NCBI GenBank assembly: GCA_000991575.1
Contig: LBRU01000001.1
Location: 8,462 to 72,461, forward strand
DNA from: a candidate division TM6 bacterium GW2011_GWE2_36_25
GTDB taxonomy: Bacteria; Babelota; Babeliae; Babelales; UBA12409
Direction of reading: 5' to 3'
Length of the DNA: 64,000 nt
Part shown: piece by piece, positions 40,174-63,146 of the stretch
Layout of the letters: each line of letters begins with the position of its first letter
How positions within the stretch are numbered: position 1 is the stretch's first letter
The notes under the pieces: generated by a model
Database searches by the model: none
The model's input: only the letters and a program-made list of their open reading frames with translations
What the model was told of the DNA's origin: nothing
Position numbers and translations under genes: made by a program

Positions 40174-41397
40174 TTATACTACATTGACTTCTTTTTCAAT
40201 TAACTTTGATCGCATCATCTGTTTTATCCATTGCACATACTCTTCTAAAAAATTCACCTGAGGCTTAAATCTTATTATAAGGTCTCTTCGAATTGGATAA
40301 TTAATAACATCAACTACTCGATGGGCACAAACTTCTTTACCTTTAGCAAAATCCTGCAAAATAATGCAATCAGGAAATTTTTTAAGTTTTTCATAAATTA
40401 AAGAAACGTAATCATCATGTACATCATATTTATCTTCAACAAAACAAACATATTCTCCATGACTGCTTTGTAAAAGATCTTTGTATTTTTGCAAAAGAGA
40501 TACATTTTTATCATCAAAAATTAACTCCATGATCTCTTCTAATTTATTTTTTTTTATTTGATTTAAAATTTTTGTATAAGTTCGCTGAAAAAAGATCTTT
40601 CTTTCTTTTGCTGTCGGAATAAGAATGCTGAGACGAATTGGCACACCAACCTTTAAATTTAAATTATAATTCACTCCCCGTCGCGCCCTATATGTTTGTT
40701 GATCCACAGGCCCAAACGATTCATTATATGCATAAAGAGGATCATATTTTTTCTTGGTAAAAATTGGATGATCATGCTCCAATAATACGGTATTAGAAAC
40801 AAACTCCTTTTTCAGCATCCTCGATATCTCCATTAATTCATTATCACACTGCAAAGATTTATAATGAGGATGATAAATATAGCCAAACCGTTCATAAAAT
40901 CGACGTCCAATGATAGGATATGTATTTAATTCAGCACCTAAATGTCCATCATGAAAATTAAGAACACCATCAGTATCAGGAAAAAATTTTTTCATAGAAT
41001 CAATAATTATTTTATCATAATTTTGCTGTCGCGGGACCATGTCATCACTAGCAACCAACACAATATCCCAATCTTTAATTTTTTCTATATCTCGATTATA
41101 AGCCTCTATTTTTCCTTTGCCATGACTAAAATAAAACTCGAGATTTTTGTAACTTTTTAATCTCGCAATAGACGCGACACAATTCATGCTTTTATCATCG
41201 ATATCGCACGAAATCAAAAAGCGACAATTACATAAATCAGAAAGTTTTTTATAATATAAGTCTAATCTTCTAAAAAATTGTTGTGGGCGCGATTTCGTGG
41301 GAATTTTAATAACAAGCTTAAAATCTTTAGTTTGGCCACACATAGTTAAAAAACTTAAAATTATACTAAAACCCAAAAGAACTTTACCTGTTTTCAT
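40174..41397 (-). CDS. Two-domain glycosyltransferase (intact GT-A-like domain + degenerate GT2 domain)
   Basis: IPTKSRP, KIEAYNRD, VASDDMVP, YIYHPHYKSL.CDNE and EH.HP; signal-like leader. Confidence 0.75.
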   Translation of the reverse strand: MKTGKVLLGFSIILSFLTMCGQTKDFKLVIKIPTKSRPQQFFRRLDLYYKKLSDLCNCRFLISCDIDDKSMNCVASIARLKSYKNLEFYFSHGKGKIEAYNRDIEKIKDWDIVLVASDDMVPRQQNYDKIIIDSMKKFFPDTDGVLNFHDGHLGAELNTYPIIGRRFYERFGYIYHPHYKSLQCDNELMEISRMLKKEFVSNTVLLEHDHPIFTKKKYDPLYAYNESFGPVDQQTYRARRGVNYNLNLKVGVPIRLSILIPTAKERKIFFQRTYTKILNQIKKNKLEEIMELIFDDKNVSLLQKYKDLLQSSHGEYVCFVEDKYDVHDDYVSLIYEKLKKFPDCIILQDFAKGKEVCAHRVVDVINYPIRRDLIIRFKPQVNFLEEYVQWIKQMMRSKLIEKEVNVV

Positions 41398-42314
41398 TGT
41401 TTTTTGTACCTAATAAATCGCGTTTTTCCTCCCTCAAACTTTGTGTCACCTCGAGACCTATATATAACAGAATCCTTATTCAAAACCTTTTTATCCCAAT
41501 GAATGTGTACAGGAATCGTTCTTCCCCCCACAGATAAATTTATCCAACCTTCATCATTAATTTTTAATTTTAAACAATAGGCATAAATACTAAATAACGT
41601 TTGATCATGTCGCGCCGCACCATAACCAAATTTTGCTGTACCATCATCTTTAAATAAACCCAAGTCTTTTGAATGTTGATACATTGGAAAAATATAATCA
41701 TCAAGCATTTTTCGCGAGACACCTTGTAATCCTGCGTCTATGTGATAAGAATTAGGCGATAAAATTAGTACCTGATCCTCAAGCGATCTTTTACTTAAAA
41801 CTTTGTCAATAACTGTTTGAGTAATACGATTTACCTGATTGCAATTTTCATTCTTTGTACAACTTAACAAAAAATAACCCTGTTCCACTATGTGCTCAAA
41901 TAAATTATCCAAAGACTTTAAAACCGTAGTACCAGCATCTAAGTATAAGACATAGGAAAATCTCTCTAGCGCTTGCTTAATAACAACAGGCTTCCAGGCA
42001 AAATATCCACGAACCATTCGGCCTCCAGGAGCTGTTTTCAAAGGTTTTAATAAATCAGGATGAGTCATCTCCACATCATAAACTTTTACTTTCGCCATCC
42101 GTGTAAGCTCATTACGTTGTTTAATTTCAAAACCCAAATCAAAAACAGCAATTTCTCCTAAATTGACAAAATCTGCTCGATGAATACTTCCAATCAAATT
42201 CTTTACCCAACCAAAATGCTTACTATCAGCTGGAGTGCAATAATAATGAGGTATAGAAAAAAGTTTTAAAAACAAAGAACAAAAAAACAACAATTTATGA
42301 TTAAAAAATTTCAT
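41394..42314 (-). CDS. DUF1647-like putative glycosyltransferase with signal-like leader
   Basis: ADSKHF, VFDLG, FAWKPVVI, YLDAG and RHDQT. Confidence 0.65.
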   Translation of the reverse strand: MKFFNHKLLFFCSLFLKLFSIPHYYCTPADSKHFGWVKNLIGSIHRADFVNLGEIAVFDLGFEIKQRNELTRMAKVKVYDVEMTHPDLLKPLKTAPGGRMVRGYFAWKPVVIKQALERFSYVLYLDAGTTVLKSLDNLFEHIVEQGYFLLSCTKNENCNQVNRITQTVIDKVLSKRSLEDQVLILSPNSYHIDAGLQGVSRKMLDDYIFPMYQHSKDLGLFKDDGTAKFGYGAARHDQTLFSIYAYCLKLKINDEGWINLSVGGRTIPVHIHWDKKVLNKDSVIYRSRGDTKFEGGKTRFIRYKKQ

Positions 42315-43246
42315 ATTCTTCGCCCATTATATTTAATAAATTTAGTTTTGCCACCCTGAAATTTTATATCATGACGAGACCTATAGATAACCGTATTTTC
42401 ATTCAATGTCTTTTTATCCCAATGAATATGTACAGGAATCGCCTTCCCCCGAATAGATAAATTCAACCACCCTTCATCATAAATATGCAACTTTAAACAA
42501 AGTGCATAAACAGTAAACAGGGTTTGATCGTGGCGCCCCTCCCCGTACCCAAATTTTGCTGTTCCATCATCTTCAAACAAATCCAGCTCTTTTGAATGCT
42601 GATACATAGGCATAACATAATTATCTAACATTTTCCGGGAAAGACCTTGCAATCCCGCGTCTATTTGATAAGAATTTTCTGATAAAATTAACATTTGTTC
42701 CGCAACAGGACGTTTCTTGACAATTCGGTCAACAACAGGCTTCGTAATACGATTTACTTGACACCCAATTGCACCTTTTGTACCACTTAACAAAAAATAG
42801 CCATGTTCTTCAATATGCTCAAAAAAATCATCTAAGGATTTTAATATTGTAGAACCCGCATCTATATACAAAATATAAGGAAACTTGTCTAATGCTTGTT
42901 TTATAATAACGGGTTTCCACGCAAAAAAACCACGCACCCTTCGGCCATTTAAATGTGTCTGAAATGGCCGAAGCAAATCAGGATGGGTCATCTCAACATC
43001 ATAAACCTTTACTTTTTCCATTCGCGCAAGCTCGCTACGTTGCACTTGATTAAACCCTAAATCAAAAATAGCAATTTCACCTAAATCTTTAAAATCTTCT
43101 TTATGAATACTTCCAATGAGATTTTTCAAAATGTGAAAATGTTTGGCATCAGCCGGAATACAATAGTAATGGGGTATAGCAGAAATGCCCAAGGACATAA
43201 AAACAAAAATCCGAAAACATACAAATAAATTATAAAACTTCATCAA
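42311..43246 (-). CDS. DUF1647-like paralog
   Basis: ADAKHF, IFDLG, FAWKPVII, YIDAG and RHDQT; tandem with the previous gene. Confidence 0.65.
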   Translation of the reverse strand: MMKFYNLFVCFRIFVFMSLGISAIPHYYCIPADAKHFHILKNLIGSIHKEDFKDLGEIAIFDLGFNQVQRSELARMEKVKVYDVEMTHPDLLRPFQTHLNGRRVRGFFAWKPVIIKQALDKFPYILYIDAGSTILKSLDDFFEHIEEHGYFLLSGTKGAIGCQVNRITKPVVDRIVKKRPVAEQMLILSENSYQIDAGLQGLSRKMLDNYVMPMYQHSKELDLFEDDGTAKFGYGEGRHDQTLFTVYALCLKLHIYDEGWLNLSIRGKAIPVHIHWDKKTLNENTVIYRSRHDIKFQGGKTKFIKYNGRRI

Positions 43247-43266: not shown

Positions 43267-43980
43267 TTATTTTTTCTTTCTATAAATATCATCACCCCCC
43301 TTGGAAGCAATGCGTTTATAGCCCTTTTGATTCAGATGCTGCATTATTTTTTTATCATTGTTGTTATTCTCAACGGCAATTACATCAATATCTATTTTGT
43401 TAAAATCAATTGATTTAATAATGCTTTCTTCGCTTCCTTCAGTATCGACACTTAAAAAGTCTATATGCTTAATACCGTATTGTGCACAAATATTATTAAA
43501 CTTAAAACATTTAACTCTTACAATTTCTTGCGAGCCCCCCCTTGTTTTAATCTCATCCACAACCCTTTTTTGATGAGCATCATCAAAGGTATCTGTCAGC
43601 CCACTAAGCATTTCAGGGCAGCCATTCACTTTTGCGAAATCAAATTCCCCTTCTTTATCAAAAATACATCCTTGCATACAAATACAACACCTATTTTTCT
43701 TTAATTCTTTAAAAATTTCTGGATGAGGCTCAACACATATTCCTGCCCACTCCATCTCCTTTTCAAAAAAATACGTATTGCTATAGCTCATGCCGTCATG
43801 TGCACCTATGTCAAAAAAGAATCCGTAACGTTTATTTTTTCTAAATAAAACTTCATGAACATATTTATCTTGACCACACTGGCTATAATAGGGAGCACAA
43901 AGACGGGGATAATCAACTTTAGAAAAAGTATCAGATGAAAAAAACAAACAAAAAATAAAAAGTAATAAATTAAAAATCAT
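43267..43980 (-). CDS. FkbM family methyltransferase with signal-like leader
   Basis: YSQCGQD, FFDIGAHDG..SNT, GICVEP and IDFLSVDTEGSE. ATG at 43980 follows AAGGAG. Confidence 0.9.
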   Translation of the reverse strand: MIFNLLLFIFCLFFSSDTFSKVDYPRLCAPYYSQCGQDKYVHEVLFRKNKRYGFFFDIGAHDGMSYSNTYFFEKEMEWAGICVEPHPEIFKELKKNRCCICMQGCIFDKEGEFDFAKVNGCPEMLSGLTDTFDDAHQKRVVDEIKTRGGSQEIVRVKCFKFNNICAQYGIKHIDFLSVDTEGSEESIIKSIDFNKIDIDVIAVENNNNDKKIMQHLNQKGYKRIASKGGDDIYRKKK

Positions 43981-44241
43981 TCTTACTTCTCCTTTAATTC
44001 TTACAAAACAAAAAATGACTTTCTTCAATATAAATCTTTTAAATTATCTCAGCAACAACCCTTTTTAGACCTCTTATGGCAAGAAGATTCTCATAAATAA
44101 TCAAGCTCAAATTGAATAAAGAACCAGTCTTTGTTATTTTGAGCAAGTAGATTTTCTATTGTAAAATTTTTAAACTGCCTTGAAATTTTAAATTATTTCT
44201 TTCATGTATCATTGCGTGAAAAACTAAAAAAGGAACGTTTT

Positions 44242-45312
44242 ATGCAATACAAAGTTTTTTTATATTATTTATGTCTTATCACTGGAATACTGTATGCACA
44301 CCAAGGAATAACATCCGAAGTCGCATGTTTTTCTGGCGACACCATCATTCCTTTTTCGTTTGCCTTTATGTTATCCAAAAAATATAATATTCCTTTATAT
44401 CTCAACGGCGAAAATGAATGGCATAAAAACCTTAAACCATTCAGAATTTATCACTCAGATTTACCAACGTGGAATAACGACAATTTAAAAAAATGGAAAC
44501 TTATTCCCATTCAAACTGAAAAGGATATTCAGCAACATATTCATGAAGACAATATCATGTTCATCACTTCGCTACGCACTTCTTATAATTTCTCTCAACA
44601 ACATTATCAATTTTTAAGAGAAGCTTTAGAAATAAATAGACCAATCGTATACCAGCAGCCCCCTTCTGATAGAATTAGTATTGTAATGCATGTAAGAAAG
44701 GCCATACAAGGCATAGCCCCTTGGTTTGGCGCCCTAGCATCACAACAATATTATAACATCAAAGCTCATACTATACATTATGTAAAAAACCATTACCACC
44801 CACTTACTTACTTGCCAAGGATATGTCAAAAGGAGGCAACAGACTGTCAACCTGTTAATTATAAAAATTTCACTTATTTTGACAAAGTTCATGATTGGGA
44901 AACCAAATATCCCCCCGAACAATACTATGCAGAAGCACTAAAAGAAGTGTCTGCGCGTTTAAATAATCAACCACTTTTTGTACGCATAATAACAGACGAT
45001 AATAAAAATCCTTTAAAATTAGTTGAACGAATAAAAAAGGCCGTAAATTTAAAGAATATTGATTTTCACTACCAAGACCTACGCCATCTCAATAAAGAAG
45101 ATTGTATTCGCTCAGAATTATACGCTTTATCCCAGCACGATATTTATATTCGCTCACAATCTTATTTTTCTCGCATTGCCGAAATCATTGGCAGCCACAC
45201 ACTAGTTTACTCGCCAATAGCTTTTAAATGGCAAAATAATTCAACATTAATTATGACCCAAATAGGCGTAACGGGTTCTTACAAAAAACTACTTAAAAAA
45301 GAGAACTCATAA
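44242..45312 (+). CDS. GT11/GT23-like (fucosyltransferase-fold) protein with signal peptide
   Basis: SIVMHVRK (HVRxG-like), YYAEAL, IITDD and IRSQSYFS. Confidence 0.55.
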   Translation: MQYKVFLYYLCLITGILYAHQGITSEVACFSGDTIIPFSFAFMLSKKYNIPLYLNGENEWHKNLKPFRIYHSDLPTWNNDNLKKWKLIPIQTEKDIQQHIHEDNIMFITSLRTSYNFSQQHYQFLREALEINRPIVYQQPPSDRISIVMHVRKAIQGIAPWFGALASQQYYNIKAHTIHYVKNHYHPLTYLPRICQKEATDCQPVNYKNFTYFDKVHDWETKYPPEQYYAEALKEVSARLNNQPLFVRIITDDNKNPLKLVERIKKAVNLKNIDFHYQDLRHLNKEDCIRSELYALSQHDIYIRSQSYFSRIAEIIGSHTLVYSPIAFKWQNNSTLIMTQIGVTGSYKKLLKKENS

Positions 45313-46397
45313 TGAAATTTCAGTATTGCTTTTTACTTTGGAATATTTTAATACATATCAATATTCTTTGTTCGACATGCAAAAAATGGATCGTCATTAC
45401 TTCTATAAATTATCCCACACAAGCCATTAAACAATTGTCTAATCTTTCAGAATGGCACGTTCTCGTTGTTGCTGATAAAAAAACACCAACTGATTGGAAA
45501 TGTGAACAATGCACACTCTTAACACTCGCTGATCAAAAAAAACTTGGTTACGCCATATATGATTATCTACCATTCAATCACTATAGCCGTAAAAACATTG
45601 GCTACCTCTATGCTATTTCGCACGGCGCAGAGATCATTTATGATACAGATGATGACAATATTCCCATCTATCAAAATCTTTCTTATTTACCCGAACAGTA
45701 CACTGGCCCACTGGTAAAAACTAAAAATAGCTTCTGCAATATTTATAATTATTTTGGAAATGACACTGTATGGCCACGCGGTTTTCCACTTGAGGAAATT
45801 TTAAGTCAAACTAAAAAAGAAAAAATAAAAACAACACGACACTTTCCACTTATTCAACAGGCTCTCGTAAATAACAATCCAGATGTTGATGCGGTTTTCA
45901 GATTAACAAGAAGTTCGAATATTAATTTTTACAATACACACGCTTCACTTTCCCTTCCCGCTCAAACCTTTTGCCCCTTTAATACACAAAGTACTTTTTT
46001 TCACAAAAAGGCTTTTTGGGGTCTCTTAATCCCTGTTTCTACCAAATTTAGGGTATGCGACATTTGGAGAGGTTATATAACACAACGTCTTCTATGGGAA
46101 ATTGGAGGCAGCCTTACCTTTCTTCCTCCTCAGGCATTCCAAGAACGCAATCCTCATAATTTATTATCGGATTTTATCGATGAACAGGACTTGTATATTC
46201 ACAGCAAAAGACTTGTTACGCAATTAAAAAAGACGCAACTAACAAACAAAACTTTTGAAGAAAAATATTTAGCACTTATACAATGTCTCACAGAACAACA
46301 TTTTTACGATCCAATAGAAATTAAATTAGCAAAAGCATGGCTTGATGACCTAAAAAAATTAAACTACAAGATGCCTCAATTTTCTGAGGATAAATAA
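45312..46397 (+). CDS. STELLO/DUF288-family glycosyltransferase-like protein
   Basis: KWIVITSINYPT, VVADKKTP.DW, YSRKNIGYLYAI.HGA..IYDTDDDN, PDVDAVFRL and FRVCDIWRGY. Confidence 0.85.
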   Translation: MKFQYCFLLWNILIHINILCSTCKKWIVITSINYPTQAIKQLSNLSEWHVLVVADKKTPTDWKCEQCTLLTLADQKKLGYAIYDYLPFNHYSRKNIGYLYAISHGAEIIYDTDDDNIPIYQNLSYLPEQYTGPLVKTKNSFCNIYNYFGNDTVWPRGFPLEEILSQTKKEKIKTTRHFPLIQQALVNNNPDVDAVFRLTRSSNINFYNTHASLSLPAQTFCPFNTQSTFFHKKAFWGLLIPVSTKFRVCDIWRGYITQRLLWEIGGSLTFLPPQAFQERNPHNLLSDFIDEQDLYIHSKRLVTQLKKTQLTNKTFEEKYLALIQCLTEQHFYDPIEIKLAKAWLDDLKKLNYKMPQFSEDK

Positions 46398-50715: not shown

Positions 50716-52029
50716 TTAGCCAAAAAATAAAATTACGCGAAATCGTTCATTTAAAAAGCCAATTCTACGCCACTTATTCAAAAGCTCGCCAGTATCATTA
50801 AAGTTTAATTTTTCAATTTCCTCCAATAAAAATTGGCGAGAATAAACATTTGCATAAAATGAATTTCTTAAATAAGCTAACTGTCCCATTAACTGTCCGG
50901 CGTATACGTTTTCCCCTAAAAACTCAGCCTTTTTTTTCATACTTTTATCAACTAAAAGATCAAATCGCAGGGCATGAGACTTACTCAAATAGGTAACAAC
51001 CTTTTTCAAATCAATAACATCATCAATTTTTTCTTTTCCTGATAACAACAAAATATAATCAGAGACAGATTCTTTCAACATGGAAATCAACGATTCTCTC
51101 AGTTGATCATTTTTAATTACATAAGTAGAATTAAGCCCATTAAATTTTGACAAAAGTTCTTCATTTAATTTTTCGGTTAAATAAATTAAGTCGACCTTAA
51201 AAGAATTGGGTGAAGCTCTTAGTATCGGTTGCTCTAAACGGTAATACTTTTTACGGTCTCTCAAAAAAGAACGACATGTTTGAATTTGAAAAAGTTTATC
51301 AACTTTATCATCATTAATTACATTGGCTCGATTATAAACATAAATACAATCTCTGAAAAAATAATGTCGCTCGGACGCCATTTCCAACATCGGCATCATT
51401 TTAGCAACATCACCAGCTGTTTTTGCAAACCGTCCTTTAAACATCAAATCCTCTATTTTGATTTGACGATAAAGCCATGCATAAAAACACCGTTGCTGAG
51501 AACTATTTTTTCCAAATTCCCTAAATCTATTGTTCGCAATAACCGCCTTAGGTATCCCTTTATTCCAGCACGCTTTGTTAGATGGATATTCTCGAAAACC
51601 ACCATAAGTTACCCATATATTCTCTGTAGAAAAAACCTCATCAATATGCTTAAAAACTTTTTCATGGGGGTACCAATCGTCTCCATCGCAAATAACAATA
51701 ATATCCGAATCATCAATAGGAACACCTATATCAATTTGATGAAGTGTAAGCCAAATATTGGCAGCTTTCCCACGACGAACATTATTTTTATGAAGACAAA
51801 TTTTGTCTTGAACGCCCAATAATTCAACTTCTTGTGAAATCTTTTCAAAGGTATCATCCGTTGATGCGTCATCTCTCAAAACAACGAAAAAATTTTCATA
51901 TTTTTGTGAAAAAATAGAACGAATATTCTTAACACACCACTTGCTATTTTGATACGTTGTAACTAAAACAATTAATCTTTTTTCGGCAGCCAATGAAAAA
52001 AATAATAAAAATAATAAAAAATTTTTCAT
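50716..52029 (-). CDS. Glycosyltransferase family 2 with signal peptide
   Basis: MKNFLLFLLFFSLAA leader; DDASTD, CDGDDW and PMLEMA. Confidence 0.87.
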   Translation of the reverse strand: MKNFLLFLLFFSLAAEKRLIVLVTTYQNSKWCVKNIRSIFSQKYENFFVVLRDDASTDDTFEKISQEVELLGVQDKICLHKNNVRRGKAANIWLTLHQIDIGVPIDDSDIIVICDGDDWYPHEKVFKHIDEVFSTENIWVTYGGFREYPSNKACWNKGIPKAVIANNRFREFGKNSSQQRCFYAWLYRQIKIEDLMFKGRFAKTAGDVAKMMPMLEMASERHYFFRDCIYVYNRANVINDDKVDKLFQIQTCRSFLRDRKKYYRLEQPILRASPNSFKVDLIYLTEKLNEELLSKFNGLNSTYVIKNDQLRESLISMLKESVSDYILLLSGKEKIDDVIDLKKVVTYLSKSHALRFDLLVDKSMKKKAEFLGENVYAGQLMGQLAYLRNSFYANVYSRQFLLEEIEKLNFNDTGELLNKWRRIGFLNERFRVILFFG

Positions 52030-53105
52030 TTAATCTCTTCAAGCTTCTTTACCACCTCTTCCTCAAAAACCTTTGACCGATCATAGCCAGGAAACATCTC
52101 AGTTAATACCTGATCTATAAAGTATGGAATAGAAAATTTAAAGGCACCATTACTCGCTAAAAATTCTTTAATATTTTCCACATATTTATTATATTCGTCC
52201 TCAGTTATAGATTTTAAATATTTATATAATACTTCGTAATTCTTAAATTTTCTAAAATCAATAAAACAATGTTCAGGAATATGATTCGTTATATTAGGTG
52301 CACCTAAATAAACAGGTACACAACCAGCATGAAAACAATCAAAAATCTTCTCTGTAATATAACCGGGTTGATCACTCGTATTTTCATAACAGATGCAAAA
52401 TTTAAAATTCTTTAGAATATCAACTTTTTTTAAAACGCCTCCTCCATAGGTTTTATATTTATAATTCCATCCTTTACCATAAAACGTAAAATCCTGTGGG
52501 AAATGCTCAAAATATTCTATTGCTCTTCTACGTTCGGAATATAATTCATTTTTATAGGTTGAGCTTTTTCTTCCAGCAACTAATGTACAAAAACGTTTTT
52601 GCTTAAAGGAAACAACCTCCTCAATCATCTCTATATTGGGATGAGGATAATATAATTTAAAATATTTCTTGTTATCTACAAAACGATCGTCCATTATAAA
52701 GATCTTAGAAAATATTTTATGAGCCGCCTTGGTATAACTTCGTGGATCAACGGTAATAGGCTCCCATATATGTGCATATAATTTTTCAGGCGGACATAAG
52801 CGTAAAATTTGCGCACGACTCATATTAAAACTTGACCATAAAACAAACTCTCCATCGGACAAATCTCGACGAGGAATAGTTAATTTTAACTGATAACCCA
52901 GCTTTTCTAATGCAATTTTTAAATCAAAAAAATGCTTAACACAGTTGTCGCGATTATAAACCTGATCCCTCAGATCAAAAAGTTTTCCTTTTTCATAACC
53001 CAATGGAGGAATCATATAGATAATATTTTTATGTTTAGATTGAGCAAGGCTTAAAGCAAAAAAGCTTAAAATTAAACATTTTATCATATGTTTTAATGAA
53101 TCCAT
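52026..53105 (-). CDS. GT10 (alpha-1,3/4-fucosyltransferase family)-like protein with signal-like leader
   Basis: FKFCICYENT....GYITEKIFD.F.AGCVPVYLGA is the GT10 motif. Confidence 0.85.
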   Translation of the reverse strand: MDSLKHMIKCLILSFFALSLAQSKHKNIIYMIPPLGYEKGKLFDLRDQVYNRDNCVKHFFDLKIALEKLGYQLKLTIPRRDLSDGEFVLWSSFNMSRAQILRLCPPEKLYAHIWEPITVDPRSYTKAAHKIFSKIFIMDDRFVDNKKYFKLYYPHPNIEMIEEVVSFKQKRFCTLVAGRKSSTYKNELYSERRRAIEYFEHFPQDFTFYGKGWNYKYKTYGGGVLKKVDILKNFKFCICYENTSDQPGYITEKIFDCFHAGCVPVYLGAPNITNHIPEHCFIDFRKFKNYEVLYKYLKSITEDEYNKYVENIKEFLASNGAFKFSIPYFIDQVLTEMFPGYDRSKVFEEEVVKKLEEIK

Positions 53106-54072: not shown

Positions 54073-54981
54073 TTATTTATAAAAAATATATTTTTTCATG
54101 CCTCGAGATATACCCTTTTTTGATATAAAAATATTTGTATTTTTATTCAAGAATTTTATATCAGATGTTGTATGAAGCTTAGCCTTTTTTCCATCACCAA
54201 AATCCAATTCTGTCCATCCTTCTGGATGAATTTTCATTTTTAATTTATGCGCCAAAACACTAAACAATGTTTGATCATGACGAGCTTCGCCAAATCCAGC
54301 TCTTGCAGTTTTATCATCAGCAAATAAATATGGCTTATGAGCAAATTTGTACATGGGTACTACATAAGAATCCAAAACATCACGTGACAATCCCTGTAAT
54401 CCAGCAGATATCATGATAGTATCATTCTTGAGTAAAAAATTTTTTATCGATGGATCTTCTTTATTGATTACATCATGTAAAACCGAACGCGTCACTCTGC
54501 GCGCTATATTACATGTCATGATAGGAAGATTACTTATTAAGAAATAGCCATGCTCACGAATATATTCAAATAAATAGTCAAGAGATTTTAAAACGGTAAC
54601 TCCTGCATCAATACAAAGAACATAAGGATATTTATCTAATGCTTGCTTAATTACTACCGGCTTCCATGTAAACCATCCCCGTGCAATCTTGCCAGATGGA
54701 CTTGAGACAAAAGGGGTTAAAATGTCAGAATTAACTTTTTCAACCTCATAAACATTGGCCTTCTGAATTGTATCAAGATGCTTTCTCTGTCCTTCGTTCA
54801 ATCCCAAGTCAAAAACCATAATTTCGCCAAGCCGATCAAAATCAATTCGATGGATACTTCCAATAAGATTTAACAATAATTCATAATGACGAGAATCAGC
54901 ATACGTACAATAATATTGTAACTCAGTAGGATGAACCAGAATAAAAAAAAGACTTAAAAAATAAAATAAAAACTTTCTCAT
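54073..54981 (-). CDS. DUF1647-like paralog (third copy)
   Basis: YYCTYADSRHY, VFDLGL, TWKPVVI, IDAG and RHDQT. Confidence 0.65.
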   Translation of the reverse strand: MRKFLFYFLSLFFILVHPTELQYYCTYADSRHYELLLNLIGSIHRIDFDRLGEIMVFDLGLNEGQRKHLDTIQKANVYEVEKVNSDILTPFVSSPSGKIARGWFTWKPVVIKQALDKYPYVLCIDAGVTVLKSLDYLFEYIREHGYFLISNLPIMTCNIARRVTRSVLHDVINKEDPSIKNFLLKNDTIMISAGLQGLSRDVLDSYVVPMYKFAHKPYLFADDKTARAGFGEARHDQTLFSVLAHKLKMKIHPEGWTELDFGDGKKAKLHTTSDIKFLNKNTNIFISKKGISRGMKKYIFYK

Positions 54982-55975: not shown

Positions 55976-56061
55976 AACTTCCAATAGTCATGCCAGCGAA
56001 AAACCAAAATATTATTATCTACCTTTGTTAAAACTTCAGCGACGAAAGGTAAACTAAATTT

Positions 56062-57192
56062 TTATAAGTGATTCAGCAATTCACTTTCGACCATTTTTTT
56101 TGCTAACTCGTTAAACTTTGTTGTTGGTTGCCATCTTAAAAGTTTTTTAGCTTTTTCATTGCAACCAAGAGAACTCTTTTTATCATTTGGCCTAAAAAAT
56201 TTAGGGTCAATACGCACTAATATTTTTTCAGTCTCCTTATTGCGGCCAATTTCATTAATTCCGTCGCCATGCCATTCAACAGTAACACCAATAACTTTAA
56301 ATGCTGCTTCAACAAATTCACGAACGCTGTGCCCCTCACCAGTCGCTATTACATAATCATCTGGCGCATTTTGTTGTAACATAAGCCACATTGCTTCTAC
56401 ATAATCAGGCGCATAGCCCCAATCTCTCGTTGAATCTAAGTTTCCCAAGCATAAAACTTTATTTTTACCACAGGAAATTTTAGCGACTGCTCGTGCAATC
56501 TTGCGAGTTACAAAACCCCTTCCTCGTCGCTCAGACTCATGGTTAAATAAAATACCATTACATGCAAAAATCTTATAAGCTTCTCGATAATTTCTAGTAA
56601 TCCAGTACGCAAATAATTTAGCAGTTGCGTAAGGAGACTTGGGCGCAAACAAAGTCATCTCATCCTGCAGTTTATCTTCAACATCACCAAACATCTCACT
56701 CGAAGAAGCCTGATAAAAACGAATCTTGTCTTTTAATCCCAATATTCGAATCGCTTCCAAAATTCTCAGCGGTCCTAATGCATCACAATTGGTTGTATAT
56801 TCGGCCTTTTTAAATGAAAGAGCCACTTGACTTTGCGCACCCAAATTATAAATTTCATCTGGCTTAACTTCATCAAGCAACTCAATAATGCTCGACGCAT
56901 CGGTTAAATCACCGTAATGTAAAAAAAGACTATTTTTGTAAAAACCCTTAAAACTCTGCCGCATCCGTTCTAATTGTGAAGGGGTATTCCGCATACACCC
57001 ATGAACAATATAATTCTTATCTAGAAGAAGCTTCGTTAGGTAAAAGCCATCCTGACCAGTAATACCAAAGATGAGTGCTTTTTTATCATTGCCATTTATT
57101 TGCAATAAAAAAATACCAATGAACCATAATTTAAAAACCCAATACTTAAAACGAAGTTGGGTTGATATAAAACCCATTATATACTGCCCCAT
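56062..57192 (-). CDS. gmd: GDP-mannose 4,6-dehydratase paralog 2 with hydrophobic N-terminal extension
   Basis: GITGQDG, YNLGAQS, YQASSSE, SPYATAK, NHES and GNLDS.RDWG. Confidence 0.88.
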   Translation of the reverse strand: MGQYIMGFISTQLRFKYWVFKLWFIGIFLLQINGNDKKALIFGITGQDGFYLTKLLLDKNYIVHGCMRNTPSQLERMRQSFKGFYKNSLFLHYGDLTDASSIIELLDEVKPDEIYNLGAQSQVALSFKKAEYTTNCDALGPLRILEAIRILGLKDKIRFYQASSSEMFGDVEDKLQDEMTLFAPKSPYATAKLFAYWITRNYREAYKIFACNGILFNHESERRGRGFVTRKIARAVAKISCGKNKVLCLGNLDSTRDWGYAPDYVEAMWLMLQQNAPDDYVIATGEGHSVREFVEAAFKVIGVTVEWHGDGINEIGRNKETEKILVRIDPKFFRPNDKKSSLGCNEKAKKLLRWQPTTKFNELAKKMVESELLNHL

Positions 57193-57193
57193 A

Positions 57194-58333
57194 TCAACTG
57201 AATTGATCAGGATTTTCCAAATCAGCTTTTAACATTTTTTTTACCAACCCTTCAAAGGTAGTCTGTGTGCGCCACCCCAATATATTTTGTGCTTTGGAAG
57301 GATCGCCTAAAAGTAATTCTACTTCTGTTGGTCTAAAGTAACGAGCATCTATTTTAACTAATATTCTTCCAGAAGTTTTATCTTTACCTGTTTCACTAAG
57401 ATCTTTGCCACTCCACTCAATATTCATCCCAATTTCTTTAAACGCCAATTCTACAAATTCACGTACGCTATGAGTTTCTCCTGTCGCAATTACATAATCA
57501 TCTGGCTTTTCTTGCTGTAATACAAGCCACATTGCTTCTACATAATCAGGCGCATATCCCCAGTCACGCTTGGCATCCAAATTGCCAAGATACAGTATTT
57601 CTTGTGAGCCCTTGGCAATTCGAGCGACAGCACGCGTAATCTTTCTTGTTACAAATGTACCACCACGACGCTCCGATTCATGATTAAATAGAATTCCGTT
57701 ACATGCAAACATGCCATACGCTTCGCGGTAATTTCTTGTAATCCAATAAGCATATACTTTTGCTGCACCATATGGAGAGCGCGGATAAAGAGGCGTTGTT
57801 TCTTTTTGAGGAATTTCTTGCACCTTTCCGAACATCTCACTCGTTGAAGCTTGATAAAAACGAGAAACTTTTTGCATATCTAAAATTCGAATAGCCTCCA
57901 AAATCCTCAAAGTTCCTAACGCATCACAATTTGCCGTGTATTCTGGTGTCTCAAAAGAGACCAACACGTGGCTTTGCGCACCTAAATTATAAATTTCATC
58001 AGGTCTAATTTGCTGAATTAAACGAACAACGTTTGAAGAATCAGTTAAATCACCGTAATGTAAAAAAAAGTTTTTACACCTTGGATCATGCTGATCACGA
58101 TATAAATGATCAACTCTCCCGGTATTAAATGAAGAAGAACGTCTTTTTACTCCATGAACAATATAATCTTTATTTAAAAGAAGTTCAGCTAAATAAGAAC
58201 CATCTTGACCAGTAACCCCAAAAATCAACGCTATTTTTTGCTTGTTAGATGAAATTAAAGATTCTGCATTTTCATCAGCATTTAATTTTATAAAACAAAA
58301 AACTAACAACGAAAAAAAAAGACTTCTTTTCAT
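57194..58333 (-). CDS. gmd: GDP-mannose 4,6-dehydratase with N-terminal signal-peptide-like leader
   Basis: [43 protein letters not shown] and [18 protein letters not shown] precedes [19 protein letters not shown]. Confidence 0.95.
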
Positions 58334-58413
58334 ATATACTCCAAAAAAACTCTCTGTTTTTAAAAACTTGCAGCTACAAACTAATCATTAATCAATTAAA
58401 TGTAAAGCTCGTA

Positions 58414-60564
58414 TTAAAAAGTTGCTTCACCCCCACCTTGGCATACCAATCGATCAAGATGCATGGTCAGATGAGCCGTCTGATACAACAACTCAGCATC
58501 AAACAATGATGAATGATCCGGCTTTTTCACTTCATTGAAAAATTTACGCGCTAATACTTCTCGTCCTTTATCCGGAACGCGTACAAGCTCATCAAAACCT
58601 TTTGGTAAACCAAATCCCGTCAGACGCATAAAATCTTCCATTACAATCGTCTTTCCATCGAAATGAAGCTCCATGCGCTCAACGCCATTTTCCCGATGGC
58701 CAATAGAAGTCATTTCTAACGAACAAATAGAACCATCACTCATCTGTAATTGCGCAATAAAATTATCTGAAGTAAAGATATGTTCACGTGTTGGACGAAT
58801 GGTTTCAACTGAAATCGACAATGGCTTCGCATCAGTTAAAAACCCAAAAAGATCTATTATATGTGATGCTTTGTCAACGATATTTCCAAAGCGTGGACGC
58901 ATATCAACGCTATCACAATCGTCCAATGCCCTAAGATTAAGACGATAAGAAATCATTAACGGAGTTCTTCTTTTGTATATCTGCCTTTTTATTTTTTGAA
59001 TAAATGGTGCATGCGAACGATAATATCCTACGCACATACGAGCTTTATTGTTACACTCTAAATAACTTCTCAGACGATTCAACTCTTCTTCACTGAATGC
59101 AAAGGGACGTGCTAAATAAAGCTTTTTTCCGTTTTGAAGAGCTTTTATTATATGCTCAACATGCAACGACTCTTGGGAAGAAATACAAACTACATCCGTT
59201 GATGGATCATCATAAAAAAGTTCAGCGTCACCCGTTAATGCAGTCGCACCAAAATATTGTTTTGATGTATCAATCGCTCGAGATACATCTCGATCAATAA
59301 TGCGATGAATTTTAACACCATGAATATTTCTCACGATAGGTAATAATGACAATCGCGTAGAACGATTAGCTCCAAAAAAAGTAACATTAAGCTCATCGGA
59401 AGGAATTTTATGAGCAGGAACAAACAGTTCTTCTTTAATTTCGGGGCATACATCTTTTTTGGCAACTGACTTACGATATGAAATGATAAAACCAAGCCCC
59501 ATATCCTCTTCAAATTCCTCCGAAACATTCTCAAGTGAAAGCTCTTTTCCAATCAAACTTTCAGTATTGATTTTTCCAGTTTTAATCAAGTGTAAAAAAG
59601 AGACCATATTTCTATTTTCTGTCCAACGAACATAATTGTAAGGATAATCTTTCCCTTGAAATTCATACCCAACATCATAACGACCAGGGCCATATGTCAT
59701 CGAAAAGATAATTTTTATCTCTTTTTGCTGAATAAACTCGTGCTCAAATAAAATAGATTTACTACCAACCAAAATTATTCTTCCCTGCTTGCGCGTAATA
59801 CCAACCATTAAGTTAGCCTCTTGATTGGCAATATATTCGGGAGAAACAATCACACAGTCAACGCCATATTCTTGTGTTACCTGCGCAATATTATCTTGAG
59901 TATTGTCATTGATTTGATAAATAAATTCAGCCCCAGATTTTTGCGCTAACACTAACTTACTTTCCGCGTAGTCAAGAGCAATAACACGCGCACCGGCAAG
60001 ACTTGCCAATTGAGTAATCATCTGTCCCAAACTATCTAGACCCACAACACAAACAAACTCACCAATTGAAATTTTAGCGCGACGAATACTTTGCAGTGCA
60101 ATAGCACCAATACTTGTCAAACTTGCATGCCTAAGTAAATGATCATCAGATACACGCACAACTAATTGTTCGGGGACACAAACAATTTCTGCATGATGAG
60201 CAAATCCAGCACCTGCACAGGCAACAAGATCACCCGCTCGAAACTGTCTTACTTTTTTTCCAACAGCAATAACTTTACCTGAACAAGAATGGCCAATTGG
60301 CAACGTAGACTTAGTACGACGATTCTGAATTACATGCCGAGCATGATCACCACCTTTTTGCATAATTAAATCGAGAAGCTTTTTAATTTTAAGTGGCATA
60401 TTATGAAAAAATTTATTTTTTTGATCAGAAAGAATTTTTGAAAGTTCCTGTCCGGATCCAATAAATGAATAGGAAACATCAACTAAAACCGAATAATCAT
60501 CAAGAAGTGGCTGGCAAACCTCTTTTATTTCTATTGCCCCTTTTTCCAAAAATAGCTGACGCAC
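58414..60564 (-). CDS. Bi-domain oxidoreductase (Zn-ADH-like + Gfo/Idh/MocA), polysaccharide-locus type
   Basis: GDLVACAGAG.A.HAE, YGPGRYD..YE..G.DYP..YVRWTENRN, and a C-terminal Gfo/Idh/MocA-like half; GAGGAG RBS with GTG start. Confidence 0.85.
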   Translation of the reverse strand: MRQLFLEKGAIEIKEVCQPLLDDYSVLVDVSYSFIGSGQELSKILSDQKNKFFHNMPLKIKKLLDLIMQKGGDHARHVIQNRRTKSTLPIGHSCSGKVIAVGKKVRQFRAGDLVACAGAGFAHHAEIVCVPEQLVVRVSDDHLLRHASLTSIGAIALQSIRRAKISIGEFVCVVGLDSLGQMITQLASLAGARVIALDYAESKLVLAQKSGAEFIYQINDNTQDNIAQVTQEYGVDCVIVSPEYIANQEANLMVGITRKQGRIILVGSKSILFEHEFIQQKEIKIIFSMTYGPGRYDVGYEFQGKDYPYNYVRWTENRNMVSFLHLIKTGKINTESLIGKELSLENVSEEFEEDMGLGFIISYRKSVAKKDVCPEIKEELFVPAHKIPSDELNVTFFGANRSTRLSLLPIVRNIHGVKIHRIIDRDVSRAIDTSKQYFGATALTGDAELFYDDPSTDVVCISSQESLHVEHIIKALQNGKKLYLARPFAFSEEELNRLRSYLECNNKARMCVGYYRSHAPFIQKIKRQIYKRRTPLMISYRLNLRALDDCDSVDMRPRFGNIVDKASHIIDLFGFLTDAKPLSISVETIRPTREHIFTSDNFIAQLQMSDGSICSLEMTSIGHRENGVERMELHFDGKTIVMEDFMRLTGFGLPKGFDELVRVPDKGREVLARKFFNEVKKPDHSSLFDAELLYQTAHLTMHLDRLVCQGGGEATF

Positions 60565-60710
60565 ATCATTCTCCTCACACTGCTTAATTTTAAATTACCT
60601 TGTAAATCCCCCTTTTGAATCACTCGTCCCAAGCTTTAAATCTGGATAACCCTCAATAATAATTTTAAGTCTACTTAAACATTAACATGTTTTTAATTTT
60701 CAACAAATTC

Positions 60711-61787
60711 TTACACAAGAAAACTTCTTTGTGTTCTCAATATCTCTACAGCTTTTTTTATCTGTTCAACAGAGCTTTTTTTCGCAACTACAATAACATT
60801 GTCAGTTTCGACCAAACACAAATCATCTACTCCTAAAAAAACAATCTGTTTATTATTTTTTGAAAAAACCAAATTATTGTCAGCATTTAAAGCAATTAAT
60901 TTTTCAGATTTTTCAAACTGATTACGCAATGTCAAAAAAACCGCCAAATTGCCCACATCTGACCATTGAGCATCAAGCAGCACTGCTTTTAAATTTTTAG
61001 ATTTTTCCATAACAGCGAAATCGATTGAAATATTAGGCAATACCTCATACGATGCTTCGCCTGCAAGATACTTTTTTATCCCTTGAATAATCTGCGGCGC
61101 ATATTCTTCAAATTCGCTCAAAAAAACTTTCGCGCGCGCACAAAAATAAGAGCCATTCCAGACCATTGTTCCCATATTGAGATATTCTTGCGCTTTTTCA
61201 AACGATGGTTTTTCATGAAAACTCACCACGCTCATAACTTTATTTGCTACAAATTTTTCGCTCAATTTAATATACCCATAACCAATTGCAGGCCATGTTG
61301 GCTTAATACCAAGCAAAACCATTTCATCATTTTTTGCAGCATAATCTATTGCTAATTTAACTGAGTCTTTAAAATTTTTAACCGGATGAATAAAATGATC
61401 AGCAGCTAAAAAAACCAGAATAGCATTAGGATCTTTTTGCGCTATTTTCATGGCGGCCAAACAAATAGCAGGCCCCGTATTACGCAATGCCGGCTCCACC
61501 AAAATCTGTTCAATCTGATTACCAACTTGCTGCTGAACTAAAGAGACAAAGTCTTTAGTTGTCGCTACGAGCTTATGGCCATTTTCAACTATTCCATCAG
61601 CACGCTCCAGCGCCATCTCGAGAAGTGTTTTTTCTCCATCAATACTCAAAAATTGTTTAGGATATTTCTGACAACTCAGCGGCCACAATCGCTCACCAAC
61701 CCCACCGGCAACAACAATAAAATAAACATTTTCTTTCGCCAACAAATTTACAAAAAATAATATGCTTAATAAAAATTTAATCTTCAT
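60711..61787 (-). CDS. manC: Mannose-1-phosphate guanylyltransferase with signal-peptide-like leader
   Basis: VAGGVGERLWPLS...PKQF, EPALRNTGPAI, ADH, GYGYI, FHEKP, SIDFAVMEK and WSDVG; leader MKIKFLLSILFFVNLLA. Confidence 0.93.
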   Translation of the reverse strand: MKIKFLLSILFFVNLLAKENVYFIVVAGGVGERLWPLSCQKYPKQFLSIDGEKTLLEMALERADGIVENGHKLVATTKDFVSLVQQQVGNQIEQILVEPALRNTGPAICLAAMKIAQKDPNAILVFLAADHFIHPVKNFKDSVKLAIDYAAKNDEMVLLGIKPTWPAIGYGYIKLSEKFVANKVMSVVSFHEKPSFEKAQEYLNMGTMVWNGSYFCARAKVFLSEFEEYAPQIIQGIKKYLAGEASYEVLPNISIDFAVMEKSKNLKAVLLDAQWSDVGNLAVFLTLRNQFEKSEKLIALNADNNLVFSKNNKQIVFLGVDDLCLVETDNVIVVAKKSSVEQIKKAVEILRTQRSFLV

Positions 61788-61796
61788 TATTTTTCC

Positions 61797-63077
61797 CTAT
61801 AAATTGAGTAAAGCCTCTTGATTTTTTTTGCATAAATTAATTGTTTTCTGCTGCCAGCCCAATCCGGCAAAATCAAGCCACTTTTTATCGCTGTATTTTT
61901 CTAAGTCAAGAGTTTTAAACTGATTATGTGCAACAAGAGCAACTATTATATCTGCCTTTTCTATCCCAACTTCAAATGGAACCATCGTTCCAAATTTATG
62001 AGCAATTCTTTCTTGCTCAACATTTGGTTCCGAGATTGATAATGAAATGTTTTTTTGAGCGAAAAGTGCTTCCGCAACTTTAATTGCTGGTGATTCACGT
62101 AAATCATCAACATTGGGTTTATACGTTAAACCAAGCAGGTGAACACGACAAATATTTTTTTCATTATCTACACACCAATCCTGCACTTTTTTCTCAATGT
62201 TTTTTACCACTTGAGCAGGACGCTCATCATTAGTTAGTCGTGCAGACTGAAAAAGTCGCGTCTTATGAGGGAAGGTATTTATTAAAAACCATGGATCAAT
62301 TGCCACACAATGACCCCCAACGCCACATCTTGGTATCAAAATTTTTACACGCGGATGTTTATTTGCAATCGCAACAACTTCATAAGGATCAAACCCTAAT
62401 TCTTCAGCTAAAACCGCAACTTGGTGAGCAAGTGCAACCGCAACATCAATTGCGCTATTTTCAGTCAATTTTAACAATTCGGCAAACTTAGCAGACTTAA
62501 GATGCAATGCTCCCTTAACAAACTTTTGATAAAAAGAAGCCGCCTTTTTAGTGCACGCAGAAGTTACTCCACCAATGATTCGTTCATTGTTAACTAACTC
62601 TTCAAAAACCTTGCTTGGCCACACACGCTCAGGACAATGTGCAACAAAAATATCTTTACCAATTTTTAATCCAGTTTTTTGCTCAAGCATCTGCGCGCAC
62701 AAATCAGTCGTTCCAACAGGAATCGTTGATTCTAAAATAACCGTATCACCAACCTTCAGCCTCTGAACAATTATATTCATCGCTGAAAAAACAAAACTTA
62801 AATCAGCCCCATTCTGCTTACTCAATGGCGTTGGAACCGCAATTATAAAACAATCTGCTTCTGGCAAAATTGTTGTTGCGCTAAAATTTTTACCCTTTAA
62901 AACAAGCTTTAAACGTTCTTTTAATTCTGGCTCAGTCAAGTCAACATTTCCTGTATTAACTCTCCTTACTCTTTCTGTATTAATATCAAACCCCGTTACA
63001 TGATATCCATGCTGCGCCGCAAGAATTGCTGTTGGTAAACCAACATAACCTAAACCAACTACGCAAATCTTTTCCAT
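61797..63077 (-). CDS. wecC: UDP-N-acetyl-D-mannosamine dehydrogenase family (nucleotide-sugar dehydrogenase)
   Basis: GLGYVGLP, IAVPTP, ESTIPVG, HCPER, GVGGHC and YKPNVDDLRESP. ATG at 63077 follows AAGGAG. Confidence 0.85.
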   Translation of the reverse strand: MEKICVVGLGYVGLPTAILAAQHGYHVTGFDINTERVRRVNTGNVDLTEPELKERLKLVLKGKNFSATTILPEADCFIIAVPTPLSKQNGADLSFVFSAMNIIVQRLKVGDTVILESTIPVGTTDLCAQMLEQKTGLKIGKDIFVAHCPERVWPSKVFEELVNNERIIGGVTSACTKKAASFYQKFVKGALHLKSAKFAELLKLTENSAIDVAVALAHQVAVLAEELGFDPYEVVAIANKHPRVKILIPRCGVGGHCVAIDPWFLINTFPHKTRLFQSARLTNDERPAQVVKNIEKKVQDWCVDNEKNICRVHLLGLTYKPNVDDLRESPAIKVAEALFAQKNISLSISEPNVEQERIAHKFGTMVPFEVGIEKADIIVALVAHNQFKTLDLEKYSDKKWLDFAGLGWQQKTINLCKKNQEALLNL

Positions 63078-63146
63078 CTTTAAACTCCTTTGTTGGGAAC
63101 AACTCTTAATAGACAAGAATAAAAAATCTAAGATCTAATACAAGTG

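Follow-up and report, generated by a model that had tools for sequence, protein, structure and literature searches.

Nucleotide-sugar synthesis in bacteria is regarded as cytoplasmic because it needs nucleoside triphosphates and NAD(P)(H). In Chlamydia, enzymes of glycogen metabolism are secreted by type III secretion into the inclusion lumen, where they are fed by host UDP-glucose. Here we analyzed a 64,000-nucleotide stretch (the window) from the candidate division TM6 bacterium GW2011_GWE2_36_25, a probably intracellular organism, in which a ManC-type mannose-1-phosphate guanylyltransferase and two GDP-mannose 4,6-dehydratases (Gmd1 and Gmd2) carry N-terminal leaders. We propose, with moderate confidence, that these leaders are translated Sec-type signal peptides, that ManC, Gmd1, probably Gmd2 and the GDP-L-fucose synthase Fcl are exported, and that GDP-fucose would be made outside the cytoplasm. 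As in Chlamydia, an intracellular bacterium would move sugar-nucleotide-dependent enzymes out and use host sugar nucleotides. Unlike there, where type III secretion, glycogen and UDP- or ADP-glucose are involved, the present case has Sec-type leaders and the route from GDP-mannose to GDP-fucose.

The cultured Dependentiae parasite Chromulinavorax destructans is described as having predicted signal peptides on 44% of its coding sequences, secreted M3 peptidases, a dependence on host nucleotides, nucleotide transporters and a Sec system in a genome of about 1 Mb (PMC6561590). The genome studied here is similar in that about 43% of its open reading frames (ORFs) look exported and two M3 genes bear leaders. 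It differs in that no mention of nucleotide-sugar enzymes, "mannose" or "glycosyl" was found in PMC6561590. Searches of the literature on Dependentiae/TM6 and on secreted GDP-mannose or GDP-fucose enzymes found no report of leader-bearing GDP-sugar enzymes, the supplements of PMC6561590 being outside this coverage. A large Sec-dependent secretome in a parasite with a reduced genome is known, and its apparent extension to a whole nucleotide-sugar pathway would be new.

Leaders on ManC and both Gmd copies

The window spans G000:C1:8462-72461, where G000 denotes the own genome and C1 the contig. The assembly comprises 1.07 Mb in 17 contigs with 36% G+C and is 94.6% complete. The genes in question lie on the minus strand in the order NDP-sugar dehydrogenase, ManC, zinc-alcohol dehydrogenase (ADH)/GFO fusion oxidoreductase, Gmd1 and Gmd2. 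ManC (60711-61787, 358 aa) matches Pfam NTP_transferase over residues 24-292 (139 bits, cut-off 21.2) and the monofunctional guanylyltransferase PDB 2x5s over residues 24-350 (4.4e-60). It scores 269 bits against the GMP part of TIGR01479 (model positions 4-349 of 467), a model whose cut-off of 372.95 fits the bifunctional GMP/PMI form; the PMI half is missing, as in monofunctional enzymes. Both features looked for in ManC/GMP enzymes were recognized, a nucleotidyltransferase domain with the GGxGxRLWP motif and a C-terminal beta-helix, the ManC_GMP_beta-helix match of 24 bits falling slightly below its cut-off of 27.

Gmd1 (57194-58333, 379 aa including leader and linker) and the divergent second copy Gmd2 (56062-57192, 376 aa) pass the 415-bit cut-off of TIGR01472 at 602.9 and 484.5 bits, respectively. 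Gmd1 residues 32-372 align with residues 2-341 of 7kf3 with the active-site motifs kept, and Gmd2 matches PDB 5in4 at 3.8e-118. In these alignments both copies retain GxTGQDG, (T/S)SE and YxxxK, with SSE in Gmd2 at the position of TSE in Gmd1. We take these motifs to be the glycine-rich NADP site of the short-chain dehydrogenases/reductases (SDRs), the catalytic Ser/Thr-x-Glu and the Tyr-x3-Lys. The initial annotation had described leaders on all three ORFs and proposed their alignment with characterized enzymes. Alignment to 2x5s, 7kf3 and 1db3 bears the extensions out, at about 19 extra residues in ManC, 31 in Gmd1 and 35 in Gmd2. ManC residue 24, where its NTP_transferase domain also begins, corresponds to residue 5 of 2x5s; Gmd1 residue 32/33 to residue 2 of 7kf3/1db3; and Gmd2 residue 37 to residue 2-3 of 1db3/7kf3. 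The Pfam GDP_Man_Dehyd domain starts at residue 36 in Gmd1 and 40 in Gmd2.

Read by eye, each extension has the three parts of a Sec signal peptide, taken here as a basic n-region, some 7-15 hydrophobic residues forming the h-region, and a c-region in which positions -1 and -3 are small. The ManC leader (codons 1-17, 61737-61787, minus strand), MKIKFLLSILFFVNLLA, consists of the n-region MKIK and a 13-residue uncharged run ending in L-L-A, and is followed by KENVYF. The 19-residue Gmd1 leader (codons 1-19, 58277-58333, minus strand) has the n-region MKR and a 12-residue uncharged run ending in L-N-A, after which DENAE opens an acidic linker that reaches residue 31. In both proteins acidic or polar residues follow the putative cleavage site. 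The Gmd2 extension (codons 1-34, 57091-57192, minus strand), MGQYIMGFISTQLRFKYWVFKLWFIGIFLLQING, opens with a long basic n-region, continues with 14 uncharged residues that close in I-N-G, and is followed by NDKK. The -3 residue, Leu or Val by eye, is allowed, though the classic residue is Ala.

The charged n-region, the h-region of 12-14 residues (9-25 in the orthologues described below), the small -1 and the aliphatic or small -3 residue resemble Gram-negative type I signal peptides, and the genome encodes three signal peptidase I genes. Other leader types fit less well. The Tat type would call for an Arg-Arg pair and a TatC translocase, but none of the three window leaders contains such a pair and TatC was not found in the 94.6%-complete genome. 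A lipobox has Cys at +1, a small residue at -1 and Leu, Val or Ile at -3; the only Cys in the leaders, C13 of Gmd1, is preceded by Phe, and the ManC and Gmd2 leaders are Cys-free.

We then considered where translation starts. The extensions could be over-extended ORF calls, in which open AT-rich sequence lies upstream of the true starts of ordinary cytoplasmic enzymes. This is conceivable at 36% G+C, and 12.5% of shadow ORFs look leader-like to our heuristic. Two related sequences in other genomes, the apparent Gmd leader of G034 and the ManC extension of G016, have Met codons inside them and probably represent over-calls. The initial annotation had stated that no internal Met precedes the catalytic motif in ManC and Gmd1. 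This holds, and Gmd1 has no GTG there either, but in-frame TTGs had been overlooked (ManC codons 15 and 16, Gmd1 codons 9 and 36, Gmd2 codon 30), and Gmd2 has an ATG at codon 6. The TTGs in Gmd2 and ManC are possible starts. The start of Gmd2 is ambiguous between the ATG at codon 1, the ATG at codon 6 and the TTG at codon 30; the codon-1 ATG lies 1 nt past the stop codon of Gmd1, as is often the case for translationally coupled genes. The TTGs of Gmd1 fall within the hydrophobic run or, at codon 36, in the first strand of the Rossmann-fold domain, and therefore offer no usable leaderless start.

The GGAG ribosome-binding site reported for Gmd1 is present on the minus strand at 58339-58342, 5 nt upstream of the leader ATG. 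Such Shine-Dalgarno-like cores precede 317 of 687 ATG-start ORFs (46%) in this genome, the background, taken from random positions or from internal start-like codons, being 5-6%. One also lies upstream of the leader ATG of the own Fcl, and none was found ahead of any alternative internal start in ManC, Gmd1 or Gmd2. Over-calling is further countered by the recurrence of leaders in many orthologues, where in-frame stops mostly lie 3-17 codons upstream of the ATG, by the co-occurrence of Gmd and Fcl leaders at unlinked loci, and by the window housekeeping genes (LeuRS, UvrB, S1, EF-P-like and SHMT-like), none of which has an extension. With a stop probability of 0.067 per random codon, a stretch of 30 codons would stay open by chance with p of about 0.12 per gene. 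Since the leaders recur across genera, some orthologues have no alternative start and Gmd1 has its GGAG, the extensions are not start-calling artefacts. We accordingly disfavor over-calling as very improbable overall, and it is unlikely for Gmd1 and Fcl specifically.

Contigs from four DNA read sets were identical over pieces of the window, and the three leaders were free of differences. The differences seen fall in the conserved Gmd cores; they probably derive from the DNA of other organisms and have no bearing on expression or selection. No RNA run was listed as matching positions 56000-62000.

Leader-bearing orthologues and Fcl in related genomes

Forty genomes of the same order, 0.8-1.9 Mb each and labelled with G-numbers, were searched for ManC, Gmd and Fcl. 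Among 26 distinct Gmd-like ORFs, 11 were leader-bearing (seven by the heuristic and four by eye), one was ambiguous and 14 were canonical; the leaders occur in G000 (two), G001, G002 (two), G003, G019, G037 (two), G038 and G021. Leaders were also read on six of 20 ManC ORFs (G000, G002, G004, G006, G014 and G035) and on six of 18 Fcl ORFs (G000, G001, G002, G003, G019 and G037). These counts leave out six of 25 ManC loci without an ORF matching the motif pattern (L032, L043 and L045-L048) and the Fcl locus L152 of G021, which has in-frame stops. Same-design leaders therefore recur across several genera, contrary to the possibility raised in the initial annotation that orthologues might lack the extension.

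The pattern is wider than the initial annotation held, since Fcl and a GT10 fucosyltransferase are leader-bearing too. The own Fcl lies outside the window on a separate contig, unlinked to ManC and Gmd (G000:C2:70798-71814, minus strand; NF047922, 501.8 bits, above cut-off). Its 20-residue leader, MKKILQLSFGILFLSSYFYA, would complete a leader-bearing route to GDP-fucose. Canonical cytoplasmic ManC-Gmd-Fcl operons, such as that of a leaderless relative (G038:C1:122412-125484), contain the same three enzyme families, and the catalytic domains are intact in both. The window lineage differs in having a leader on each enzyme and dispersed genes.

All 22 leaders on ManC, Gmd and Fcl orthologues begin with one to three Lys or Arg residues followed by an uncharged run of 9-25 residues, after which the net charge is between -2 and +2. 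Charges arranged in this way would place the N-terminus inside and the C-terminus outside. Most runs close with [L/V]-x-[A/G], as judged by eye. The letters have diverged almost completely among orthologues, and the design is kept in all 22. In leaderless relatives, the glycine-rich motif lies 3-12 residues from the start.

Hydrophobic N-termini of this kind could instead be uncleaved signal anchors. These would tether the enzymes at the inner membrane beside membrane-bound glycosyltransferases (GTs), for substrate channelling and not secretion, with the catalytic domain facing the periplasm or, if the topology is inverted, the cytoplasm. The runs of 22-25 residues in the Gmd and Fcl of G019 and the ManC of G035, sufficient for a membrane span, would suit an anchor, as would the longer anchors on many GT2 proteins of the glycosylation island described below; leaderless operon partners and a Wzx flippase would be consistent with a pathway at the cytoplasmic face. 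The window leaders, however, have runs of only 12-14 residues, a length usual in signal peptides that are cleaved and too small to form a stable transmembrane helix. Their N-terminal Lys/Arg and the acidic residues after the run predict a translocated domain, and most orthologues have a small -1 residue and [L/V] at -3. We consider anchoring unlikely.

The Fcl leader and that of the principal Gmd co-occur in the same six of six genomes, and both are absent from the two enzymes in 10 others. Quick IQ-TREE searches with SH-aLRT support were used to ask how the leaders are distributed on the gene trees. In the Gmd tree, one group (SH-aLRT 85) unites the leader-bearing copies from families f1 and f13, Gmd2 and its G037 orthologue among them; within it, Gmd2 pairs with the second Gmd copy of G037 (97). 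The leader-bearing pair of family f15 is separate and sister to a leaderless copy. This suggests that the Gmd leader was probably gained more than once. In the ManC tree, well-supported branches (family-f1 clade, 95; tandem ManC pair of G035, 100) force at least two state changes, and the ManC leader appears to have been gained at least twice.

ManC was not found in three genomes that keep leader-bearing Gmd and Fcl, namely G003 (98% complete; best TIGR01479 E-value 7e-4), G019 (96%; no match) and G037 (94%; 2.4e-4). This loss fits a direct use of external or host GDP-mannose. Conversely, leader-bearing ManC is present in G004 and G006, where Gmd and Fcl were not found. These two genomes represent other genera of the family and share a conserved gene block (L026 and L027), in which leader-bearing ManC stands between the NDP-sugar dehydrogenase and the ADH-GFO fusion, so this ManC may also serve a second pathway.

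The orthologues also bear on a dual localization, in which the upstream ATG would yield an exported form and a downstream in-frame start a cytoplasmic form of the same enzyme. In-frame starts do lie at or near the predicted cleavage site, namely TTG 15/16 in ManC, TTG 30 in Gmd2 and an ATG immediately behind the leader in the Gmd of G003, and the internal Met of the own GalE would likewise yield a canonical start. Two forms would reconcile leaderless partners with leader-bearing enzymes. Yet the internal TTGs have no Shine-Dalgarno-like core, and several orthologues offer no other place to start: ATG, GTG and TTG are all missing in frame between leader and domain in both Gmd copies of G037, the Gmd of G021 and the ManC of G004 and G006. 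In the leader-bearing Gmd of G038 the only other in-frame TTGs lie within the hydrophobic run. Moreover, G035 and G038 each divide the two forms between separate genes: G035 has a tandem ManC pair, only one copy of which bears a leader, and G038, like G021, has a canonical Gmd plus an additional leader-bearing copy. We regard dual localization as rather improbable.

Outside the own lineage, the nearest Gmd1 relatives among the best 120 clusters at 90% identity are leaderless proteins of 344 aa with 72-74% identity. Most of them bear names of archaea of the Methanosarcinales (Methanoperedens, Methanolobus and Methanosarcina), which may hint at the origin of the Gmd1 gene. In a contig scan with ManC, all matches came from distant phyla (30-36% identity) and none from the own lineage.

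Leader frequency, export machinery and the glycosylation island

The initial annotation's statement that ManC and Gmd normally start close to the glycine-rich motif agrees, for Gmd, with a broader sample. The motif lies within 14 residues of the start in 88 of 116 Gmd representatives of 50%-identity clusters, and a single representative has a hydrophobic leader; these clusters are too collapsed to map the leader-bearing clade and serve as a baseline for canonical N-termini only. Sec-type leaders are thus borne here by enzymes that nearly all other organisms sampled keep in the cytoplasm. Among the best 120 Gmd clusters at 90% identity, 100 have canonical starts and seven have a leader by eye, counting the query's own cluster. 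All seven share the ALIFG/ALVFG variant of the glycine motif.

Within the own genome the leaders are less exceptional. Using our own hydrophobicity heuristic, a crude rule, 407 of 953 ORFs of at least 100 aa (42.7%) have a leader-like N-terminus, and 346 of the 407 have no later membrane segment. Controls gave fewer positives, with 7.6% of internal Met positions flagged in addition to the shadow ORFs mentioned above. With leaders on about 43% of ORFs, three consecutive leaders are not unusual in this genome. This frequency lowers the surprise at those on ManC and Gmd, and the initial annotation's description of them as the sharpest single piece of evidence for an exported pathway overlooked it.

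The machinery for export is encoded. The genome has three secretins, two Omp85 proteins and three TLC nucleotide transporters. The three signal peptidase I paralogues are at G000:C5:34191-35964 and C3:50925-51650, two of them in tandem. Judging from three such transporters, host nucleotides would have to cross the periplasm, and the objection that GTP is missing outside the cytoplasm would then be weak for this organism.

A random sample of 20 leader-bearing ORFs outside the window included ordinary envelope proteins. It also included two thioredoxin-reductase (TrxB)-like flavoenzymes, an adenylate kinase, a DOT1-like histone methyltransferase and another SAM methyltransferase. The adenylate kinase (G000:C1:219811-220587, plus strand) and the two flavoenzymes (C4:35967-37073 and C12:13344-14354, both minus strand) have hydrophobic leaders, although such enzymes are normally cytoplasmic and nucleotide-dependent. 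The DOT1-like protein (G000:C1:210290-210946, minus strand; Pfam 6.9e-24) lies behind a signal-peptide-like N-terminus. As a histone methyltransferase would be useful only in the host, some leader-bearing enzymes must, judging from this annotation, act on host targets. The ManC, Gmd and Fcl leaders thus appear to be one case of a genome-wide habit of placing leaders on cofactor-dependent enzymes.

Several further genes have leader-like N-termini. Within the window these are two tandem oligopeptidase-A-like (M3) genes (20119-22197 and 22211-24235, minus strand) and a gene for a 1779-aa coiled-coil protein (14519-19858, minus strand) with weak matches to SMC and to LegC2/C7-type effectors (E about 1e-4). 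Other SDR sugar-nucleotide enzymes also have hydrophobic N-termini: a GalE/TviC-like epimerase (L003 1441-2385, G000:C11) and GalE (L004 1207-2268, G000:C1), the latter with the internal Met noted above.

A likely consumer of GDP-fucose is encoded in the window. The GT10-family fucosyltransferase (52026-53105, minus strand; Pfam Glyco_transf_10, 1.1e-15, 58.2 bits, cut-off 23.9) has a hydrophobic N-terminus and belongs to a 20 kb glycosylation island (35936-55975) in which almost all ORFs do. The island also contains seven GT2 genes, a Wzx-like flippase (37398-38684), an FkbM methyltransferase (43267-44028), a STELLO-like GT (45312-46397), a GT47/RXYLT1-like transferase and DUF1647/GT8-like GT-A proteins (41394-43246 and 54073-54981, minus strand). 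The last are three paralogous proteins of about 300 aa without Pfam matches; the Atlas neighbors of the 54073-54981 protein are DUF1647/GT8-like GT-A folds, in clusters rich in giant-virus and phage members.

Hydrophobic N-termini on the GT10, GT47/RXYLT1-like, STELLO-like and DUF1647-like proteins recall the type II GTs of the eukaryotic Golgi and the glycosylation machinery of giant viruses, and the nearest Atlas clusters of the island enzymes include Nucleocytoviricota. In eukaryotes, however, GDP-fucose is made in the cytosol and moved into the Golgi, whereas here the synthesizing enzymes themselves bear leaders. We also considered whether leader-bearing GT2 proteins occur only where Gmd and Fcl have leaders too. 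This was rejected because G023 has leaderless Gmd and Fcl, yet many "SYNN"-type GT2 proteins with hydrophobic N-termini.

A candidate GDP-fucose route outside the cytoplasm

Under the proposed reading, ManC, Gmd1, probably Gmd2 and the unlinked Fcl would cross the inner membrane via Sec, with signal peptidase I most likely removing their leaders. Synthesis of GDP-mannose, its dehydration and the reduction to GDP-L-fucose would then all take place beyond the bacterial cytoplasm, either in the periplasm or, with further secretion, in the host cell. The host would supply GTP, mannose-1-phosphate or GDP-mannose, and NADPH. Leader-bearing glycosyltransferases, among them the GT10 fucosyltransferase, would then draw on the GDP-L-fucose.

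Several observations weigh against this reading. Gmd binds NADP+ and Fcl consumes NADPH, which would require folding and cofactor loading after Sec transport. The flanking genes of ManC are leaderless: the NDP-sugar dehydrogenase directly upstream (61797-63116, minus strand), closest to UDP-ManNAc dehydrogenase, and the zinc-ADH/GFO-IDH-MocA fusion oxidoreductase between ManC and Gmd1 (58414-60564, minus strand), both part of a block conserved across family f1. The sole phosphomannomutase/phosphoglucomutase (PMM/PGM) of the genome is leaderless as well, and the Wzx-like flippase in the island suggests that glycans are assembled at the cytoplasmic side in the conventional way. Because the genomes are related, the six-of-six co-occurrence of Fcl and Gmd leaders could reflect as few as one or two events, and the Fcl tree is compatible with one leader origin or several. 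The TTGs at ManC codons 15/16 and Gmd2 codon 30 could yield canonical leaderless N-termini. Finally, the heuristic flags 7.6-12.5% of control pseudo-N-termini and overlooked four of the 11 Gmd leaders afterwards called by eye. The pathway relocation put forward in the initial annotation is partly supported. The conserved leaders, the Gmd/Fcl co-occurrence, the GT10 gene and the loss of ManC speak for it, and the leaderless dehydrogenase, ADH/GFO fusion and PMM/PGM and the flippase against it.

A more far-reaching version, which we offer tentatively and are inclined to doubt, is an external, Golgi-like synthesis of GDP-fucose from host substrates. Host GTP and mannose-1-phosphate, or GDP-mannose directly, would be converted with host NADPH to GDP-fucose, and exported GTs would fucosylate the parasite surface or the host. 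Lineages without ManC would be left with the GDP-mannose route only, and the trait would have evolved repeatedly within this order of parasites with small genomes.

Whichever version applies, the leaders on these enzymes are conserved across genera, seem to have been gained more than once and in some lineages persist where the first enzyme has been lost. They offer a concrete, testable case for studying what purpose is served by the exceptionally large "secretomes" predicted for Dependentiae-like bacteria, and what becomes of their Sec-exported proteins. If the enzymes act outside the cytoplasm, host sugar nucleotides would be processed there, for self-decoration or for the modification of host molecules. 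If true, this would add a novel route by which intracellular parasites exploit host metabolism.

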